A program made the translations under genes and the position numbers. Below, in pieces: positions 1,309-46,525 of a stretch of DNA of 64,000 nucleotides. Origin of the DNA: Escherichia phage VEcB; the sequence record NC_052663.1; one strand, given 5' to 3'. A model generated the notes under the pieces. It saw nothing but the letters and a program-made list of their open reading frames with translations. It did not search any database and was not told the DNA's origin. Position 1 is the first letter of the stretch. Each line of letters begins with the position of its first letter.

Positions 1309-1860
1309 ATGAAAAAAGATGTTATTTTTACAGGTTTTGAATTGTATGAACCAGAATTAACAGAAGAAAATATTCTTTATCTTTCTGTTGGTGGTGGTTT
1401 TTTGCAAGACAAAGATGGTAACGACTGGTATCAGCTTCAAAAAACTTTGATGGTAGAATATCCCGACGCTTATTTTATTACCTTAGATGATAATAATATT
1501 GTACGTGGTGCTACTAAAGATGTTACTACCTATTTCCCTGCCGGACAATCTATTTTAGTTACATATAATGTACCAGATAAAATAGAAGATGAAAGTAACA
1601 TTGGCTCTTGGCAATATGTTGAAGGTAAGTTTGTTCCTCACAATAATCTTGCTATTGAAGATGCTACTCTTAAGTTAGAAAAGGAGCTAACTTGGGCTAC
1701 GAATCAAGTGTCTGCGATTCAAGATTTAGAGGAATTACAAGGTTTATCTGAAGAACAAAAAGATTGGTTAGGAAAAGTTAAACTCTATCGTGCAACATTA
1801 ATTCAAATTAACGTTGAAGATGCACCTAATATAACTTGGCCTACAAGACCTAAGAAATAG
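1309..1860 (+). CDS. Tail fibre assembly protein (Tfa-like chaperone)
   Basis: C-terminal region (KLYRATLIQINVEDAPNITWPTRP) resembles the conserved C-terminus of lambda-type Tfa proteins; sits between fibre genes. Confidence 0.5.
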   Translation: MKKDVIFTGFELYEPELTEENILYLSVGGGFLQDKDGNDWYQLQKTLMVEYPDAYFITLDDNNIVRGATKDVTTYFPAGQSILVTYNVPDKIEDESNIGSWQYVEGKFVPHNNLAIEDATLKLEKELTWATNQVSAIQDLEELQGLSEEQKDWLGKVKLYRATLIQINVEDAPNITWPTRPKK

Positions 1861-2211: not shown

Positions 2212-4625
2212 TGGCGAATTTTCCAACATATCCTGCTACGACACTAGAACAAGGTGTTGATCTGGTTATATTCTCGTCTAACCAGATGCATGATGTTATT
2301 AATGGAGATGCTACAGCAACTGTAGAAACCGAAACAGGTTTAATACCTACACTGCGTAAAGCACTTGTTGATAACTTCTTCTTTAAGAGTCCTGTTGCTT
2401 GGTCAGCAGGATCAACTGAAACTGTATTTAACCAGTTACGTTATTTTGAAAACGGTATCTTGAGTGGGTACTATTATGCCCCATCTGCCACTACTGCGAA
2501 CCCTGTACCTATGCAGGGCACACCTGTAGGAGACAGTAACTGGACTCTGTACGCTCTTAAAACTGAACAGTTAGCTTCAGATGTGTATCCTTGGTATTTT
2601 AAAGGTGCTACAGGATATGAAACAGAAATCAGTCCTCCTTATATCTTTGATAATGCTATTGTCACCATTAACGGTGTAATTCAGATTCAAGGTGAAGCAT
2701 TTACTATCAGAGATAGTAAAATTATTCTGGCAGAACCATTAGGTTTAGATCCGTCTACTGGTCTACCTAACAAATTGTTTGCTTTTATTGGTAAAACAAC
2801 AGCCTCTACTTCTTACGTAGAGAAAAACCTTTTGTCATCTACCACTGGTGCAGCAATGGTTGGTCTTCCATCTGGAGGCAACCTGTTACAAGCTCAATAC
2901 TTTGTAACGCCTGAGCAGTTTGGTGCAATTGGTGATGGAGTTACCGATGATACTCAAGCAATTTTAAAAACTATTACTTTCGCTAACACGAATAACATTC
3001 AAGTACGTGCAGATAAGAATTATAGATTCACAAGCTCAATTGCTATGTCTGGTATTCGTTGGTATGGTGGTACATTCACTGGTAACGGTGGAACAATGAT
3101 TTCTACTGTGTCCTGTTGGATGGAAAACGTTCGCTTTGAAAAATGTTATGTTAAGATGTTAGGTGGTGATTGCCGATTCTATCGTAATATCTTCTCCAAC
3201 GCAACATCTACAGCAGCATTCTTAATGCAAGCAATGACAAGTGAAGGTACGTTGGACTTCAGTTACAACGAAATGTATGGTTGTAAATATGCGATCCTGC
3301 AACAAGGTACTGGAGAAGTAATGACCTATGGGCGTTACTCTAACAACTATATTCACGATATCAAAGGTGATGCTATTGAACTTAACGTAGTTCAAAAACA
3401 CTACACTGAAGGTTTGATTATCGAGAATAACCACATTGCTAACGTAGATGCTTCTGGACAAGGGGCAAACTGGGGTATTGGTATTGGTGTAGCAGGTAGT
3501 GGCCCATATGGTGTTGATGTTCCTGATTCACAATATGTACGTAATTTCAGTATCGTTGGGAATAGGGTTTACAATTGCCGTCAATGTTTACACGTTGAAA
3601 TGGGTAAAAACTTCACAATACGTGATAATGAAGTTTATCCTAACACAGCAGTTTCAACAGGTACAGGTTTAACTACTTGTGGTGTTGCATTATACGGATG
3701 CCAAGATTTTGAAGTTGATGGTTTAACTGGTTATCTGCTCAATGATCCTTCTGTTTCAACACGTATGGTCTTTATTGACTGGGGTGTTAACAGTGGAAGA
3801 TATGCGGGGCCACCAATTAACTTTACAATTAAGAATTTGGATATTCCAGAATCTTCAATTGAGATTGCAACATCTGGATCAGATGCCTGGGAAAACTCTA
3901 CAATTGTTAGTAATATCAATTGTAATGTTTTTAAATGGCGTGGGCTACCATCTAGCTCTACCTTTAATAATATTCGTTGCCGTAGTATTGACTTTATTGG
4001 TCAACACGGAAGCGGAGAAGGAAGTGGTGGCGGTTTCTATACTCGCAGCCAATTCACGTATATGAAGTGGGTAGGATGTACAGCACTTAGCGGAGATGAA
4101 ACAACAGTTTCTTTTGCTAAAATCTACACTGATCGTTGCGATCAGGTTGGAAATAACTTTGGTGTTCCAACTGCTGTTGATGGTACAGGTCATCGTGGGC
4201 CAGTTTTAACTACTATTTCTGAACAATATTTTACAACTTATGATGAATTCCCAGGTGGGCGTGAATTCCCTACTGGAACAGTTATTCATTGTGCAAGCGG
4301 TAAAAAACATGTTGTTACAGTAGGTGGTGCTTTCTTTAGTGCCAACGAGAAAATAAAAGCAACTGTTACAGGTCAAACCTATCTACAGTCTAATGCTTTA
4401 AACTGGGCTAGTAATGGCTACGCTAAAGCAGCAGGTACTAAAATTGTTATTCCAGGTGCAGGTGCAAATGGCGGCGATCTTGTGACAACTATAGCACGTG
4501 CTACATATGTGACAAATAGTTTGTACACAATAGATATTGCAGATCCAATTGTAACACCTACAGCAGAGAATACACAAATCAAAGCTCTGAACCCTGTTAC
4601 TTTTGTTACTGTCAATAATGCTTAA
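2211..4625 (+). CDS. Tailspike / depolymerase with right-handed beta-helix (pectate-lyase-like) domain
   Basis: 804 aa; motif QFGAIGDGVTDDTQAILK typical of the N-terminus of pectate-lyase-fold beta-helices; repetitive G/N/T-rich beta-strand-like sequence; hairpin terminator downstream. Confidence 0.65.
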   Translation: MANFPTYPATTLEQGVDLVIFSSNQMHDVINGDATATVETETGLIPTLRKALVDNFFFKSPVAWSAGSTETVFNQLRYFENGILSGYYYAPSATTANPVPMQGTPVGDSNWTLYALKTEQLASDVYPWYFKGATGYETEISPPYIFDNAIVTINGVIQIQGEAFTIRDSKIILAEPLGLDPSTGLPNKLFAFIGKTTASTSYVEKNLLSSTTGAAMVGLPSGGNLLQAQYFVTPEQFGAIGDGVTDDTQAILKTITFANTNNIQVRADKNYRFTSSIAMSGIRWYGGTFTGNGGTMISTVSCWMENVRFEKCYVKMLGGDCRFYRNIFSNATSTAAFLMQAMTSEGTLDFSYNEMYGCKYAILQQGTGEVMTYGRYSNNYIHDIKGDAIELNVVQKHYTEGLIIENNHIANVDASGQGANWGIGIGVAGSGPYGVDVPDSQYVRNFSIVGNRVYNCRQCLHVEMGKNFTIRDNEVYPNTAVSTGTGLTTCGVALYGCQDFEVDGLTGYLLNDPSVSTRMVFIDWGVNSGRYAGPPINFTIKNLDIPESSIEIATSGSDAWENSTIVSNINCNVFKWRGLPSSSTFNNIRCRSIDFIGQHGSGEGSGGGFYTRSQFTYMKWVGCTALSGDETTVSFAKIYTDRCDQVGNNFGVPTAVDGTGHRGPVLTTISEQYFTTYDEFPGGREFPTGTVIHCASGKKHVVTVGGAFFSANEKIKATVTGQTYLQSNALNWASNGYAKAAGTKIVIPGAGANGGDLVTTIARATYVTNSLYTIDIADPIVTPTAENTQIKALNPVTFVTVNNA

Positions 4626-15477: not shown

Positions 15478-17250
15478 TTAATAAGAACCATCAGGAATAT
15501 TCTCTGGGTTACTTGTGTATTGATCGTAATCGTGAAGTGTAGCTGTTTTAATCTCATAGAAGAAACTACCTGCTGCACCAGTCTCTGAGAACTCACGGTT
15601 CTTTAGAATGTAGCAATATGTGCGGTTACGTTCCATAGGATCTTCAGCTTGTTTATCACGCTCCAGCGCAATTGTGATACCAGCACCTTTAGCAAGGAAG
15701 CTACTACCCATTGCATCATCTTCTACAATATGTTCATTACTATTGTTAGAAGACTTTTTAACGTGTGAAATTACAACAATGGTTATTGCATACTCTTTCA
15801 TAATGCGTTTCAGCCACGTCGCAAGTTCCTCTTGTTGTGACACGTCCATACCAGAAAGCAAGTCAGAATAAGGGTCGATAACAAGAATGGTTACTCCGAA
15901 ATAAATAATCATTTCCAGAACCTTCTCTTTAATCACATCTACGTTAGCTCCACGATCATCACAAACATAGAAACGTGGTGTTCCATCTTCTCGTTCGTAA
16001 AAATCACGAATCTTTTCTTCATTATCTTTTAAAATCTTTTCCTTCTCTTCTTTCGTTTTACGGTGAAGAGGGATATGCAAGAATGAAGACAGTAAGTTAC
16101 GAGAATACTTCTTATACGTTGCCTCCAAAGATAAAATACCAAGAGTATGTTCTGGGTGTGCAAGAATAATGTGTTTCGTAATCTCGTTAACCAACAGTGT
16201 CTTACCGATACTTGTTTTTGCAAGTATAACAGTAATTTCTTCTTCTACCAAGCCTCCACCTAACATATTCGAAGCAACACGCATGAATGGAGGAAGGGTG
16301 ATCATTTTAGCTTCCAGGCATTCCAAGGCTGCTTCATATAGTACGTTAGAAGCGTAAACACCAGCAGGTGTGTACAGTTTAGCTTTGAAAAAGCGATCAA
16401 TAAAATGATCAATTTTTCCTTCTACTAGTGCCTGGTTAGGATCTTTAACATCCGTTAGTTCCATCACGTAAACTTTATTACGTGGTAAGATTTTAACACA
16501 TTTCTCAACTGCTGCACGTCCAGCTTCATCATTATCCATACATAGAACAATCTTTTTAAATTGATCTAAGAATTTATAACGATGTTGAAGCTGCTTATGC
16601 AGAGATGTTTCGCCACAAGTACCAGATACTACAGCAGGAACAGGATATTTACCACCCTTGTTATAATCTTTTAGCATCTGTGTTGCAGCCAGCATATCGT
16701 GTTCACCACCAACGATTAGAATAGTACCGCTGTGGTTACGATATTTAAACTCCCCAAAAAGATCACAATCCTTTCCTGTTTCACCGATAGGATGTGAGAA
16801 ATCTTTTGGATCGATACGTTGTTTATACCCAGCAATATTGTAATCTTTAGTTGTAGGGTATAGTGTTGAAATTACTTCGCCAGTAGCTTCATCGTACATA
16901 TAACGTACACCGAAAGGCTTAGAGATATCTTCACGAATACCGCGATAACCTTTTGGATTAGTTCCAGTGCTGGCTTTTAGTTTATCATGTACTTCTGGAT
17001 TAAACTCACTACCCAAGATATCCTCCTCTTCAATTTCTTCGCCGTGTGCATTTAACCATTTTTGATCAGGGATAGTAAAGCCACAAGAAAAACAATGTGC
17101 GCCTCGATGGTCTTCATCGGCATCTAAGCCATATACCATCAAATTGTTTTGTGATCGATCACGCCCTCCTTTCATACAACGAGGACACCCAGTATGTCCT
17201 TCTTGACTTAGATCAATGTTATACCCATATTTATTTACAACATAAGACAC
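15478..17250 (-). CDS. Bifunctional DNA primase-helicase (T7 gp4-like: zinc ribbon, TOPRIM primase, DnaB-like helicase)
   Basis: GTG start with AGGAG RBS; zinc ribbon CPRC...CFSCGF; TOPRIM-like IVLCMDNDEAGRAA; Walker A AKTSIGKT and Walker B-like VLVIDPYSDL. Confidence 0.75.
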   Translation of the reverse strand: MSYVVNKYGYNIDLSQEGHTGCPRCMKGGRDRSQNNLMVYGLDADEDHRGAHCFSCGFTIPDQKWLNAHGEEIEEEDILGSEFNPEVHDKLKASTGTNPKGYRGIREDISKPFGVRYMYDEATGEVISTLYPTTKDYNIAGYKQRIDPKDFSHPIGETGKDCDLFGEFKYRNHSGTILIVGGEHDMLAATQMLKDYNKGGKYPVPAVVSGTCGETSLHKQLQHRYKFLDQFKKIVLCMDNDEAGRAAVEKCVKILPRNKVYVMELTDVKDPNQALVEGKIDHFIDRFFKAKLYTPAGVYASNVLYEAALECLEAKMITLPPFMRVASNMLGGGLVEEEITVILAKTSIGKTLLVNEITKHIILAHPEHTLGILSLEATYKKYSRNLLSSFLHIPLHRKTKEEKEKILKDNEEKIRDFYEREDGTPRFYVCDDRGANVDVIKEKVLEMIIYFGVTILVIDPYSDLLSGMDVSQQEELATWLKRIMKEYAITIVVISHVKKSSNNSNEHIVEDDAMGSSFLAKGAGITIALERDKQAEDPMERNRTYCYILKNREFSETGAAGSFFYEIKTATLHDYDQYTSNPENIPDGSY

Positions 17251-22713: not shown

Positions 22714-23310
22714 TTACTCGAACCAATCGTCGCCAGCGCCAAACGCTTTAACTACATCATAAATGTCAAGTCCAGCTTTACCTACACCATATGCTTTCAG
22801 TTTCCATTCGCTATCTTCCCGTACCAGGGAGGCAACGTGGCAAATGGTATTACCTGCAAGTTCTGGAGCCAAGAAGTCAAAATCCAGCAGTTCAACGTTA
22901 CGTTCATCATCGAAGATTTTAAGGAAACCTTCGGTAGCGTGACCAAGGCGTTTCTTACCCGTTTCGTCATCAATAGTGATTACGAATGCAATTTCCTGTG
23001 CTTCAGCAGAGATATTACCCAGTGTAACATCAATCTGCTCCATCTGTCCTACACCATCACGAACATCTTCACCTGCAAAAGTAGAACGTTCAGGATCAAA
23101 TTTCTGTGCGTAGCATACCAGGTGGCGAGGAGACAACAGTTCCGGCAGACCAGATGCATTGTGTCGGCAAATCAGAGCACTAACATCCAGATCCAGTTTT
23201 TCGTTAGATTTCCAAGAGAATTCCAGACGAATGCGTTTCAGTGCTGGTGCAATCTTTTTCAGAGAAACTTTTTCGCTAGAACCTTTTTTCAGGGAAATTT
23301 TCTGAGTCAT
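22714..23310 (-). CDS. TerD-family protein
   Basis: Colinear similarity to E. coli TerD: KISLKKGSSEKVSLKK (cf. VSLSKGGNVSLSK), DLDVSALIC (cf. DLDASAFLL), EIAFVITIDD (cf. KIIFVVTIHD), SEWKLKAYGVGKAGL (cf. GEWKFRAVGQGYAGG). Confidence 0.8.
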   Translation of the reverse strand: MTQKISLKKGSSEKVSLKKIAPALKRIRLEFSWKSNEKLDLDVSALICRHNASGLPELLSPRHLVCYAQKFDPERSTFAGEDVRDGVGQMEQIDVTLGNISAEAQEIAFVITIDDETGKKRLGHATEGFLKIFDDERNVELLDFDFLAPELAGNTICHVASLVREDSEWKLKAYGVGKAGLDIYDVVKAFGAGDDWFE

Positions 23311-35083: not shown

Positions 35084-35814
35084 TCCCGCACCATTACGTG
35101 CTGCTGCATGTCACCATGCAGATCAGACTATATCTTCATGCTTAAAGCATGTCTACCATTTGGGGTGTCATAGGCTTACACCCTACGCTGCTACATTCAT
35201 CACAGCTAGTCGTTAGGCATTTCGTAACAGAACTCATAATCATAATTATTTGGTGCTCCGCGCTTTAAGATTGCAGATATTCTTTTTCTGTCCAACCCTA
35301 AAGCGTCAGCACAACATCTCAGACTTTTAAAGTAAAAAACTTCACCAGTAGCCTTATGAGTAGCTTTTACACTGTGACACCTTGTGTAGAAAGCATAACA
35401 GTTATTATCGTAACCCTCTTGCGTGTTGTCTGGACAAGATCCCCACTCAAGATTGTATACACTGTTGTCTTTCCTATTGTCACCTTTATGCTTCACATAA
35501 GGTAAATTGTCTGGATTGGGTAAAAACGCTTCAGCTACAAGTCTGTGCACCCGAAAGCAAACAGTTTTCTTGTTTTTACGTATTCTGACAAGTTGGTATC
35601 CTGTGTTTATTTCTTCCCACGAGCGAAGGATTCTTTCATCCTTATACCTGGTACAATAAACATTTCCAAGCTCGTCAATTTCATACCCTTCAAAATCACG
35701 AATTTGTTTTCTCATATCAGTACCCCCCTTCTTCTGTGTTGGGAGTTCTGTTACGTTTAGCACGGGATTGTCTCGTTGAGAGTTCCCCCGTTTAGGCAGA
35801 TTTTACATGAGCAG
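35084..35814 (-). mobile_element. Group I self-splicing intron interrupting nrdD, carrying an HNH endonuclease ORF
   Basis: nrdD is split into two same-strand ORFs; intervening RNA (minus strand) begins ...CUGCCUAAACGGGGGAACUCUCAACGAGACAAUCCCGUGCUAAACG, closely resembling the conserved core of T4-type group I introns; boundaries approximate. Confidence 0.6.
35206..35715 (-). CDS. Intron-encoded HNH homing endonuclease
   Basis: HNH-type motif HRLVAEAFLPNP...HKGDNRKDNSVYNLEWGS; start at internal ATG with AAGGGGGG RBS; lies within the nrdD intron. Confidence 0.6.
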   Translation of the reverse strand: MRKQIRDFEGYEIDELGNVYCTRYKDERILRSWEEINTGYQLVRIRKNKKTVCFRVHRLVAEAFLPNPDNLPYVKHKGDNRKDNSVYNLEWGSCPDNTQEGYDNNCYAFYTRCHSVKATHKATGEVFYFKSLRCCADALGLDRKRISAILKRGAPNNYDYEFCYEMPND

Positions 35815-44743: not shown

Positions 44744-45011
44744 CTGATTGATCCTTTACATTGTTCTTGGCATACACAGGAATAACATCGTCGTGATCTT
44801 TATTACTTTCATCTGTTAAAGCCCAAAACAATTTACCTGCTGGATGTTTAAAGATGTAAGCAATAGGTTCCTCTTCCTGGGCTTCTTTGCTACGGATACC
44901 ATCCCGCCAGGCAAGCCAAGTGTAGATCATCACTTCTTGACGTTCTTCTTCGTTAGGCCACATATGTGGTGGAAAGTTTTTATCAAACCATTGCTTAAAT
45001 TCTTCAGTCAT
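44730..45011 (-). CDS. Hypothetical small protein
   Basis: ORF track. Confidence 0.3.
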   Translation of the reverse strand: MTEEFKQWFDKNFPPHMWPNEEERQEVMIYTWLAWRDGIRSKEAQEEEPIAYIFKHPAGKLFWALTDESNKDHDDVIPVYAKNNVKDQSDDNV

Positions 45012-45021
45012 AGTCTACTCC

Positions 45022-45186
45022 TTAACGTACAAAGTTAATCTCTGCTTCTTTCAGCTTTGACACTTCTACATAACCACCATGATCATCTTTAATCCATTCT
45101 TTTCCTTTACGGATGATAACAGGATATGTAGAGTGAGTAAGTTTAGGTACAGATCTTTTTGTTTTAGTGATAGAAATGTTTTGCAT
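45022..45186 (-). CDS. Small ORF (54 aa), not in the ORF track
   Basis: ATG preceded by AAGGAG at ideal spacing; fills an otherwise empty gap. Confidence 0.3.
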   Translation of the reverse strand: MQNISITKTKRSVPKLTHSTYPVIIRKGKEWIKDDHGGYVEVSKLKEAEINFVR

Positions 45187-45246
45187 AGTAGTCTCCTTAG
45201 TAAATTTTACATAGAGTCTAGATTATTTAGTAGATAGAGTCAATAA

Positions 45247-45513
45247 CTAATTACTGTTAGATCTGTATTCTGTCTTCCATTCACAATGGTAAACTTCAAC
45301 AGGTTCTAACTTCCAATGTTCAGGAACTAATTCAGGACAATATCTACAAAAGAGAAATAGATAGATAACTAAGACAGGTATTAAATAGTAAAATGGTATA
45401 CGATCATAACCATACTTACGAGATAACATGTAGACATATAGATAGGGTATAACAATTAATCCTATAACTATAAGTAAGAAGAGAAGTATAAACCTTAGTG
45501 TAGTAACATCCAT
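45247..45513 (-). CDS. Small membrane protein
   Basis: Two hydrophobic helices; nested inverted repeat directly upstream. Confidence 0.35.
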   Translation of the reverse strand: MDVTTLRFILLFLLIVIGLIVIPYLYVYMLSRKYGYDRIPFYYLIPVLVIYLFLFCRYCPELVPEHWKLEPVEVYHCEWKTEYRSNSN

Positions 45514-45600
45514 AGTATTCTCTTATACAGTAATATACTCTGTTCCTGCCCCTCCATGAGTGACAGGAACAATATCTATAGAGAATACTAACTCGCTTCG
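45513..45600. repeat. Nested inverted repeats upstream of the membrane-protein gene 45247..45513
   Basis: Outer perfect 11-bp arms TAGTATTCTCT / AGAGAATACTA enclosing inner perfect 7-bp arms GTTCCTG / CAGGAAC. Confidence 0.5.
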
Positions 45601-45677
45601 CTCGTCACCTTTCAGGTTTAGGGTAGCATGTTTTTCTGAAAAAGTCAATACTCTCCACAAAACTTTACAAAATACTT

Positions 45678-45950
45678 TTACATAGGTACAACAGAGTCTG
45701 TTTTGAAGTCGTACATATGATTTACACCTGTGATTTTTGACATAGAGATTGCACGTTTAGCACCTGCAATTACCTGGTCTGTCTTCTTAATCTCTTCACG
45801 GAACTTACGTACAGTTAAAGAGAAGAAACGATGATCCATCCATTGACGATTCACACGATCACGCTTGAAGTGACGGAAATCTTCAATCTGTTTATTGCGC
45901 AATCGGCGCAGTACATGTAACAGTTTATAGTAAGGGTGTTTATTTTTCAT
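45678..45950 (-). CDS. Hypothetical small basic protein
   Basis: ORF track. Confidence 0.3.
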   Translation of the reverse strand: MKNKHPYYKLLHVLRRLRNKQIEDFRHFKRDRVNRQWMDHRFFSLTVRKFREEIKKTDQVIAGAKRAISMSKITGVNHMYDFKTDSVVPM

Positions 45951-45953
45951 AAT

Positions 45954-46382
45954 TTATTCTCCAAATCGAAAATCGTCAATATCATCAAACCATACACAAT
46001 GGCGAGTCCTTTCTTTTTCTGTTGCAGACATTGTTTCAACAGCTTTAGGACTAAGCACAACAGGAATGTAACGAACAGGTCGTTCATAATAGTAGCCATA
46101 CTTTTCTGTATTAGCTGCCTCAAAGACTTTACGGCGTTCTTCAAGATCTTCTATGGTGAATCCTACCATATAACCATCATGTTTGCTACCCCATCCTTCC
46201 TCACTTTCAACAATCGGGATATAAAAGCCGTTACGCGTCCCTGACGCTGGTTCTTCTTGAGCCTGACGGCAAGCCTCCCATCCTGCTTTAAAGACGTTAT
46301 AGAGCGATTTACGCACGTTATGAGTGCCGCTTTCGCTTGCTGGATAGAGTTCATTAAATTTATCTTGGATTTGTTGTGTCAT
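45954..46382 (-). CDS. Hypothetical protein
   Basis: ORF track. Confidence 0.35.
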   Translation of the reverse strand: MTQQIQDKFNELYPASESGTHNVRKSLYNVFKAGWEACRQAQEEPASGTRNGFYIPIVESEEGWGSKHDGYMVGFTIEDLEERRKVFEAANTEKYGYYYERPVRYIPVVLSPKAVETMSATEKERTRHCVWFDDIDDFRFGE

Positions 46383-46525
46383 ACTCGCCCCTTAGTGATT
46401 ATTTGACCAGCTAAACAAATAGCTTGTAGTACAATAAAGAAGTAGCCTAATTTTACACTACCCAATACCCAGAATGCAATGTTTGCAAACAAACAAAAAG
46501 CAATATTAAGTTTAAAGAATAACAT

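Follow-up and report, generated by a model that had tools for sequence, protein, structure and literature searches.

Two nested inverted repeats at the 5' end of a small membrane-protein gene of Escherichia phage VEcB (NC_052663.1) are the subject of this analysis, which covered a stretch of 64,000 nucleotides (nt) of that genome (from here on the window; positions are counted from its first letter). We give about an even chance to the reading that, in the 5' leader of the gene (a homolog of gp208 of phage phi92), these palindromes exist as RNA helices and work as a switch of the ribosome site that depends on the promoter from which the RNA starts. The window comes from a phi92-like phage, and over 781 bases around the site it has 95–99.5% identity to 54 phages of this type (Justusliebigvirus, Stephanstirmvirinae). 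All the genes around the site lie on the minus strand, and the palindromes are found in a gap of 164 nt (45514-45677) that goes from a gp209-like gene to the gp208-like gene. The elements involved, with the lengths of proteins in amino acids (aa), are the following:

45247..45513, minus strand: gp208-like gene, the gene proposed to be regulated (88 aa, two hydrophobic stretches and a Cys/His-containing tail)
45513..45523, minus strand: outer 3' arm, core of segment 3, AGAGAAUACUA, which comprises the Shine-Dalgarno region and the spacer and ends on the A of the AUG
45535..45579, minus strand: HP2, a conserved hairpin (upper stem, the inner palindrome 45571-45541; lower stem, 45579-45577 / 45537-45535)
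45575..45594, minus strand: segment 2, the region of the outer 5' arm, GAGUUAGUAUUCUCUAUAGA, pyrimidine-rich and holding the 5' arm 45590-45580
45591..45605, minus strand: HP1, a small hairpin, A-CGAGC-GAA-GCGAG-U, whose stem includes two tandem G.A pairs, unique in the window
45620..45648, minus strand: predicted sigma-70-type promoter, a pattern match unique in the window that the scanner does not call
45642..45661, minus strand: segment 1, the putative upstream competitor, UUUGUGGAGAGUAUUGACUU, which overlaps the -35 hexamer and is present only in RNA starting further upstream
45678..45950, minus strand: gp209-like upstream gene, coding for a basic protein of 90 aa modelled as two long helices and a beta hairpin

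The outer repeat is as the original prediction had described it (TAGTATTCTCT at 45513-45523 and AGAGAATACTA at 45580-45590), with arms of 11 nt that are 100% complementary and 56 nt apart. It was also right in placing the repeat at the start codon, as the 3' arm, read on the minus strand from 45523 to 45513, ends on the A of the ATG (45513-45511), and this arm holds the Shine-Dalgarno AAGAG (45524-45520). The inner repeat was present where it had been reported, but it is longer than the 7 base pairs (bp) that had been given, comprising 14 positions (45541-45554 / 45558-45571), 12 of them complementary as DNA (86%); in RNA one exception is a U.G wobble and a single mismatch is left. The argument that such a nested structure is unlikely by chance did not survive the counts in dinucleotide shuffles of the window (100 and 300 runs). 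The window contains two perfect inverted repeats that reach 11 bp or more and have a loop of up to 100 nt, against a shuffle mean of 2.8 (100 runs) or 3.1 (300 runs), and there was one repeat of at least 11 bp enclosing a perfect one of at least 7 bp, against a mean of 0.18, with 13% of the shuffles containing one or more. The other perfect 11-bp repeat within this loop limit is found at 16299-16309 / 16401-16411 (TGATCATTTTA / TAAAATGATCA), its arms being 91 nt apart. A search of the window for the motif found both the outer arm and the inner hairpin in single copy, and no dispersed repeat.

The one possibility among the three raised at the outset that finds support is a regulatory RNA structure, and the folding of the leader speaks for it. 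The minimum-energy and the centroid folds both include the outer helix (z = -4.0), and the sense strand folds better than the antisense (-33.3 versus -25.1 kcal/mol), as it also does in two other lineages. In addition, the conserved hairpins make use of U.G and tandem G.A pairs, types of pair that are possible in the sense-strand RNA alone, and the outer 3' arm is the ribosome-binding site. For the comparison we used 16 unique leaders that precede a gp208 homolog, aligned in sets of 8 and 13, and the RNAalifold consensus of either set contained HP1 and HP2 only. Over the alignment of 13 leaders, the paired cells amount to 99.4% in HP2, where both sides change in 5 of the 12 pairs, and to 100% in HP1, and compensatory changes keep the pairing of both hairpins throughout these diverse leaders. 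The covariation score computed jointly for HP1, HP2 and the outer helix was 0.237, compared to 0.122 in shuffles and 0.04–0.12 with slid partners. Judging by this conservation and covariation of HP2, the inner palindrome is part of a real conserved RNA hairpin.

The two palindromes, treated as one object in the original prediction, do not have the same history: the inner one belongs to a hairpin conserved over the subfamily and the outer one is an addition of the genus. None of the 54 close relatives was identical over the 191-nt stretch (the best ones reached 99.5%). At 45523 the window has an A where all of the roughly a dozen relatives that were read have a G, turning the pair into U.G and giving AGGAG, a better Shine-Dalgarno than that of the window; phi92, UAB_1 and inny have a second A-to-G change, at 45516, which again produces U.G. 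The inner hairpin is kept in relatives, and the perfect outer repeat is, on the sequences read, private to this genome. Both polymorphisms of the 3' arm within the genus are A-to-G changes opposite a U, with the pairing retained. In other lineages the columns of the outer helix are pairable in 75–77% of cases, versus ~50% in slid controls, and much of this pairability consists of G.U between the purine-rich Shine-Dalgarno and a pyrimidine-rich stretch upstream. Most of these lineages have the same gene behind a free, strong AGGAGG. From these alignments we take it that the outer helix is specific to Justusliebigvirus.

What distinguishes this genus is that segment 2, expanded compared to other lineages, can pair with either of two partners, segment 1 or segment 3 (the Shine-Dalgarno region). 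The computed duplex of segments 2 and 3 has -15.5 kcal/mol. On a transcript initiated at the predicted promoter, opening the ribosome site from -14 to +3 costs 10.2 kcal/mol, which ranks 9 among 107 crude gene calls of the window (median 4.7). Among the costlier sites are those of the crude gene calls at 22837 (plus strand) and at 35715, 20708, 21966 and 25004 (all minus), with 11.8–15.6 kcal/mol. By lineage, the cost was 9.2–10.2 kcal/mol in the five unique leaders of Justusliebigvirus and 1.2–7.4 kcal/mol in the 11 others. A longer RNA folds otherwise, with segment 2 (45594-45575) pairing to segment 1 (45661-45642), located ~47 nt upstream, through 20 contiguous pairs (13 Watson-Crick, 7 G.U and no mismatch) that give -23.8 kcal/mol. 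Among ~21,000 stretches of 30 nt taken along the minus strand of the 64 kb, segment 1 is the best partner of segment 2, the next one, unrelated, giving -21.4 kcal/mol, and the antisense equivalent of this helix has only -4.3 kcal/mol. The energy of the same helix is -24.1 kcal/mol in Justusliebigvirus and -5 to -16 kcal/mol in nine other lineages, where it falls within their own background. In these computations both competing helices co-occur, and they do so in Justusliebigvirus only. When at least 165 nt of upstream RNA are included, the cost of opening the ribosome site drops to 4.5–6.5 kcal/mol.

The existence of two classes of transcripts would depend on the promoter next to the structure. 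We infer this promoter from its architecture and its conservation: the -35 is TTGACT (45648-45643), followed by a spacer of 17 nt, the TG of an extended -10 (45628-45627) and the -10 TACCCT (45625-45620), with a transcript start predicted near 45613. The block Ttgacttt.....aaAaa.aTGCTACCCTAa.c is kept in 49 unique copies, and within it the part TTGACT-17-TGcTACCCT overlaps segment 1. A search for distant DNA matches found the part of the gap that lies upstream of the hairpin ~79% conserved in other genera. The same plan recurs at the different loci, namely TATTGACTTT, a spacer made of a T-run and an A-run, ATGCTACCCTAA, HP1 after another 13–17 nt and then HP2, and the combination of TATTGACTTT, spacer and ATGCTACCCTAA would fit a sigma-70 promoter, in which the -35 is good, the spacer has 17 nt, the TG of an extended -10 is present and the -10, TACCCT, is unusual though invariant. 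HP1, of the general form (A/C)CGAGC-loop-GCGAG(U/G), is the invariant companion of the promoter block, and each of them is single-copy in the 64-kb window. Pattern scans of viral and metagenomic contigs retrieved the 49 unique copies of this promoter-HP1 module. In the 48 that could be parsed the stem of HP1 is constant over changing loops (GAA 23, GATA 15, GCA 6, GGGA 2, GAAT 1, GAAA 1), and its closing pair is C-G in 31, A-U in 9, G.U in 1 and mismatched in 7.

In the scheme that we infer, from promoter activity and start site to read-through RNA, actual folding and the effect on translation, the local promoter would give an RNA with a leader of 100 nt containing HP1, HP2 and the outer helix. 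Since this start lies downstream of segment 1, segment 2 would be free to pair with the ribosome site, covering the Shine-Dalgarno and the first base of the AUG, and the site would be closed, with little gp208 being made. The long class would come from read-through of gp209, which is plausible because the terminator scan predicts none from gp209 to the gap, and this RNA would include segment 1. Being made first and binding segment 2 more strongly (20 bp), segment 1 would leave the ribosome site open. In this way the promoter of origin would decide the translation of gp208.

Several observations weigh against this scheme. A simple promoter scanner passes over TTGACT-17-TACCCT, since TACCCT and TATAAT agree in no more than 3 of their 6 positions, and our literature search found no transcript or promoter study of phi92-like phages. 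All the energies are equilibrium predictions. The opening cost of gp208 is high, not extreme, with eight other genes of the window above it, and the energy of the segment 2/segment 3 duplex is only in the top 0.6% of the stretches compared, among which chance duplexes reach -21.4 kcal/mol. A perfect 11-bp repeat occurs at chance frequency, and the consensus that RNAalifold derives for the wider family lacks the outer helix in both alignments. Within the genus the region is 95–99% identical, so that the invariance of segments 1 and 2 is uninformative and the two transitions in the 3' arm are weak support. Finally, on reading the sequences, the reverse complement of segment 2 and the region from Shine-Dalgarno to AUG differ by one indel of 1 nt, a similarity that makes a neutral inverted duplication possible.

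In another explanation only the promoter, HP1 and HP2 are functional, and the outer palindrome and the competitor arose by local duplication or by chance in an AT-rich leader skewed in purines and pyrimidines, with no measurable effect on gp208. We regard it as rather unlikely. It agrees with the frequency of the repeat, with a family consensus that lacks the outer helix, with the confinement of the perfect form to this genome, with the free AGGAGG of most other lineages and with the single indel, which is what an inverted duplication would leave; were it correct, an ordinary structured leader would remain. However, two independent complementarities to one segment of 20 nt would have had to arise in the same genus, and one of them, the helix of segments 1 and 2, contains seven G.U and no mismatch, is sense-specific and comes first of ~21,000 stretches, whereas a decaying duplicate should also show mismatches of the A.C type. 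A different proposal, which we consider quite improbable, is that promoter, HP1 and HP2 are a small-RNA gene or a module processed by RNase III, the long irregular helix being an element of processing or stability. The outer helix would then insulate gp208 from an abundant short RNA, or cleavage by RNase III would split the gp209 and gp208 messages and activate gp208, in a manner similar to the lambda N leader and the early RNAs of T7. The paralogous copies between gp023 and gp024 of phi92 and in ESCO13 speak for it, as they oppose the flanking genes and are not followed by any co-oriented gene, and so does the UUUUCUUUU that follows HP2 in a Klebsiella-phage lineage, which would end an RNA of ~90 nt; the helices here, moreover, total at least 20 stacked pairs, long enough for RNase III. 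On the other hand, the copy of the window has neither U-tract nor predicted terminator, there was no match to an Rfam family, several lineages have neither terminator nor occluded ribosome site, and RNase III cleavage is not predictable from sequence.

An intrinsic terminator of the gp209-like gene is very improbable. There is indeed a strong hairpin ~100 nt after the gp209 stop codon, and the homologous hairpin of the Klebsiella phages carries a U-tract, but no U-run follows either helix in the window (CAGGAACAGAGUAUAUUAC and AAUACUAUGGAUG), the scanner finds no terminator on the minus strand in 44800-46400 or in 45450-45720, and the hairpin is located downstream of a promoter aimed at gp208. 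Least credible of all is a site acting at the level of DNA (a cruciform, a protein-binding palindrome or a recombination site). The original prediction had listed protein binding and recombination among its options, and in this genome the outer repeat is indeed perfect as a palindrome of DNA. However, taken as DNA it contains a T:G or A:C mismatch in all the relatives examined, and G.U, available only in sense RNA, is needed by conserved pairs of HP2 and by the whole helix of segments 1 and 2. The motif is single-copy, its arms are 56 bp apart and no recombinase was seen nearby in the region examined.

Other readings of the gap were tried and rejected. An open reading frame (ORF) of 45 aa (45523..45660), starting with a TTG just upstream of the -35, spans promoter and leader and is annotated as a coding sequence in several GenBank records (e.g., phages J-01 and Antha). 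When it is read from the in-frame TTG of the -35, codon 5 is a stop in two lineages, and ECGD1 and UAB_1 show a frameshift of +1; since the ORF is broken in relatives the annotation is most likely spurious and the gap non-coding. ARAGORN found no tRNA or tmRNA. The search of Rfam 15 gave no match in the window at the gathering thresholds, and E-value thresholds returned only hits at chance level for the leader of the window and two relatives. A type I toxin-antitoxin system was considered in view of the ESCO13 copy, which faces a small membrane-protein gene, but the protein that the phi92 paralog faces is acidic and soluble. Neither a promoter nor an RNA on the antisense side was evident, as the only promoter-like match on the plus strand of the leader scores 9/12 and such matches are as frequent in shuffles. 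Activation in trans by the RNA of a paralog was suggested by UAGAGAAUA in copy 2 of phi92, complementary to the 5' arm, and was discarded as the Klebsiella-lineage paralogs are similar there in the same sense and not complementary. Pairing of the 3' arm with AGUAUUUU at ~45675 was likewise dropped, the stretch being mutated in phages J-01 and Antha. The A-U-rich helix could recall an RNA thermometer of the fourU or ROSE type, for which there was no specific support: the predicted opening cost shows no sharp melting and declines little by little between 20 °C (12.6 kcal/mol) and 45 °C (9.2 kcal/mol).

The HP2 of the Klebsiella-phage lineage has a stem of ~21 bp (L003 1466-1530, minus strand, and loci L134, L007 and L160), and UUUUCUUUU follows it directly before a free AGGAGG Shine-Dalgarno. 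As read from the sequence, this looks like a terminator or attenuator, which might be another way to limit expression from the same promoter. The terminator scanner does not call it because of its interrupted stems.

A complete phi92-like genome gave three matches to the module, one of them with TTTTAC as -35 and all located among small ORFs. The module has ~three copies per genome, one of which is always found directly after the basic gp209-like gene. Besides the one in the window (45591-45648, minus strand), the loci include L136 (1535-1585), L046 (~3250-3345, minus) and L002 (~1535-1595, minus), and further ones are L036, L037, L094 and the metagenome loci L137-L194. The constancy of the spacer and the -10 goes far beyond what an ordinary promoter requires, suggesting that the copies share a factor-binding site. 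We consider it a speculative idea, with a low probability of being correct, that the module controls a small phage regulon as its common element, and that its unusually constant spacer, -10 and tandem-G.A hairpin are recognised by a factor of the phage, perhaps gp209. The stand-alone copies opposing their neighbors would make small RNAs, and in Justusliebigvirus one copy would have become part of a three-segment switch embedded in the promoter, the short RNA being silent for gp208 and read-through RNA alone being translated. This multi-copy combination of promoter and hairpin in Stephanstirmvirinae appears to be undescribed, as no description was found in the literature. The group in which it is now defined is used in phage therapy, and the literature search returned no transcript maps for it.

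Two of the paralogous copies oppose genes that are co-directional with each other, at phi92 locus L136 (6286-9526), 1535-1690 plus strand, and at ESCO13 L002, ~1460-1595 minus strand. Each extends into the 3' end of the gene before it, i.e., gp023 in phi92 and ESCO13_00060, which codes for a hydrophobic protein of 69 aa, in ESCO13. Neither has a credible ORF of its own, and both are candidates for small or antisense RNAs. Another copy (L046 ~3000-3312, minus; L044 2627-2950; L094; metagenome loci L156 and L194) is followed by ~200–250 nt of non-coding DNA, partly very AT-rich and with repeated runs similar to TTAATTAA, beyond which lie another TTGAC promoter and a gene whose ribosome site is strong. 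By analogy, this promoter and its AT-rich stretch recall the transcription-primed replication origins of T4 and T7.

As for the flanking genes, the phi92 record has gp208, gp209 and gp210 as hypothetical neighbors, all on the strand equivalent to the minus strand of the window. The gp208-like protein is phrog_18381, of unknown function, and had no match in Pfam; its two hydrophobic stretches were taken from reading the sequence and not from a predictor. Homologs with 38–48% identity are present in phages of Klebsiella, Citrobacter and Salmonella. Homolog searches with either flanking protein returned no names, PHROGs and Pfam giving unknown function for both, and the structure model of gp209 resembled only generic helical hairpins in the fold comparison. 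In phi92, UAB_1, ESCO32 and cardinal the gp208 homolog is split into two matches by a deletion of 1 nt near the 3' end, and the phi92 record annotates a gp208 product of 68 aa (locus L001 3051-3313; L131 in UAB_1). In view of this deletion, the C-terminal Cys/His tail seems dispensable, or else these four sequences carry errors. Promoter-like sites were also seen on the minus strand after gp208 (TTGACT-17-TAGACT, 45215-45243) and before gp209 (TTGACG-17-TAAATT, 45951-45979), a pattern consistent with a run of small units, each of which would have its own promoter. Four of the records matching the region 45200-45980 of the window (MG065639, MG065645, MG065656 and MG065689) are named "Campylobacter phage" with Campylobacter jejuni as host, yet they are 99% identical to phi92-like phages of E. 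coli, and their names or hosts look doubtful.

Among the known systems, the lambda N leader has a hairpin sensitive to RNase III beside the ribosome site of N, downstream of nutL, and T7 has RNase III sites in its early RNA; in a nut site of the lambda type, boxA and boxB are bound by an arginine-rich protein such as N. The leader described here is like that of N in its order of (predicted) early promoter, small hairpin with a loop of the G..A type and, next to the ribosome site of a small early gene, a long irregular hairpin. However, on reading the sequence there is no resemblance to boxA or boxB, and no N-like protein was identified. The mRNAs of type I toxins (tisB, hok, zorO, dinQ) code for hydrophobic proteins usually under 60 aa and have an antisense RNA as partner. 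The likeness lies in a small membrane protein and in a primary transcript predicted to be inert by its paired ribosome site, but gp208 has 88 aa, no antisense RNA was found, the phage is lytic and activation is proposed to take place through a longer RNA and not through a shorter, processed one. Alternative pairing among three segments is best known from leader attenuators, in the translational attenuation of ermC and cat and in the 1:2 / 2:3 pairing of the trp type. Here too a middle segment can pair upstream or downstream and the downstream partner holds the controlled signal, in this case the Shine-Dalgarno and the AUG. Unlike in those leaders, a conserved leader peptide is absent (the 45-aa ORF is broken), and the choice would be made by the start of the transcript and not by a stalled ribosome.

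Promoter-early stem-loop (PeSL) cassettes of T4-like phages have a stem-loop upstream of the promoter, which is the terminator of the previous unit (PMC4122927). The module shares with them the nature of a repeated composite, in which a sigma-70-like early promoter (here predicted) and a stem-loop are found among small accessory genes in varied contexts. It differs in that its hairpins are downstream of the promoter and in the transcript, in its ~three copies per genome instead of dozens, in that some copies oppose their neighbors and in its unrelated sequences. Between the gp209 stop (45678) and the -35 (45648) we saw no stem-loop on reading the sequence. A Shine-Dalgarno and a start codon follow the module in the window, but not in the phi92 or ESCO13 paralogs. 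Since the stem-loop of PeSL lies upstream of its promoter, the module is not a PeSL cassette, and PeSL is the nearest described repeated element of promoter and stem-loop. These cassettes are reportedly treated in PMC2839356 as well. The rV5 paper has only sigma-70 promoters of the consensus type, some of them with an extended -10.

The closest parallel is found in the T4 genes e (lysozyme), soc, 49 and I-TevI, where the Shine-Dalgarno and/or AUG are in a helix and the choice of promoter sets translatability, long early transcripts being closed and short late ones open (PMC3014915). As in these genes, the Shine-Dalgarno and/or AUG are predicted here inside an intramolecular helix, with a putative promoter within or next to the structure and a second class of transcripts that would lack one of the pairing partners. 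There is no T4-type late promoter and no relation in sequence, and the predicted polarity is reversed, with 10.2 kcal/mol for the short RNA and 4.5–6.5 kcal/mol for the long one, which would be open because it carries a stronger competitor for the anti-Shine-Dalgarno arm. Therefore, the kind of control is known, i.e., sequestration of a ribosome site with alternative pairing, and the arrangement appears to be a new variant of it, since the proposed competitor is inside the promoter and the short transcript would be the closed one. If this is true, it would be the mirror of the classic T4 lysozyme arrangement: here the own transcripts of the promoter would be silent downstream and those reading through would be translated, providing a compact separation of a strong promoter from the adjoining membrane-protein gene.

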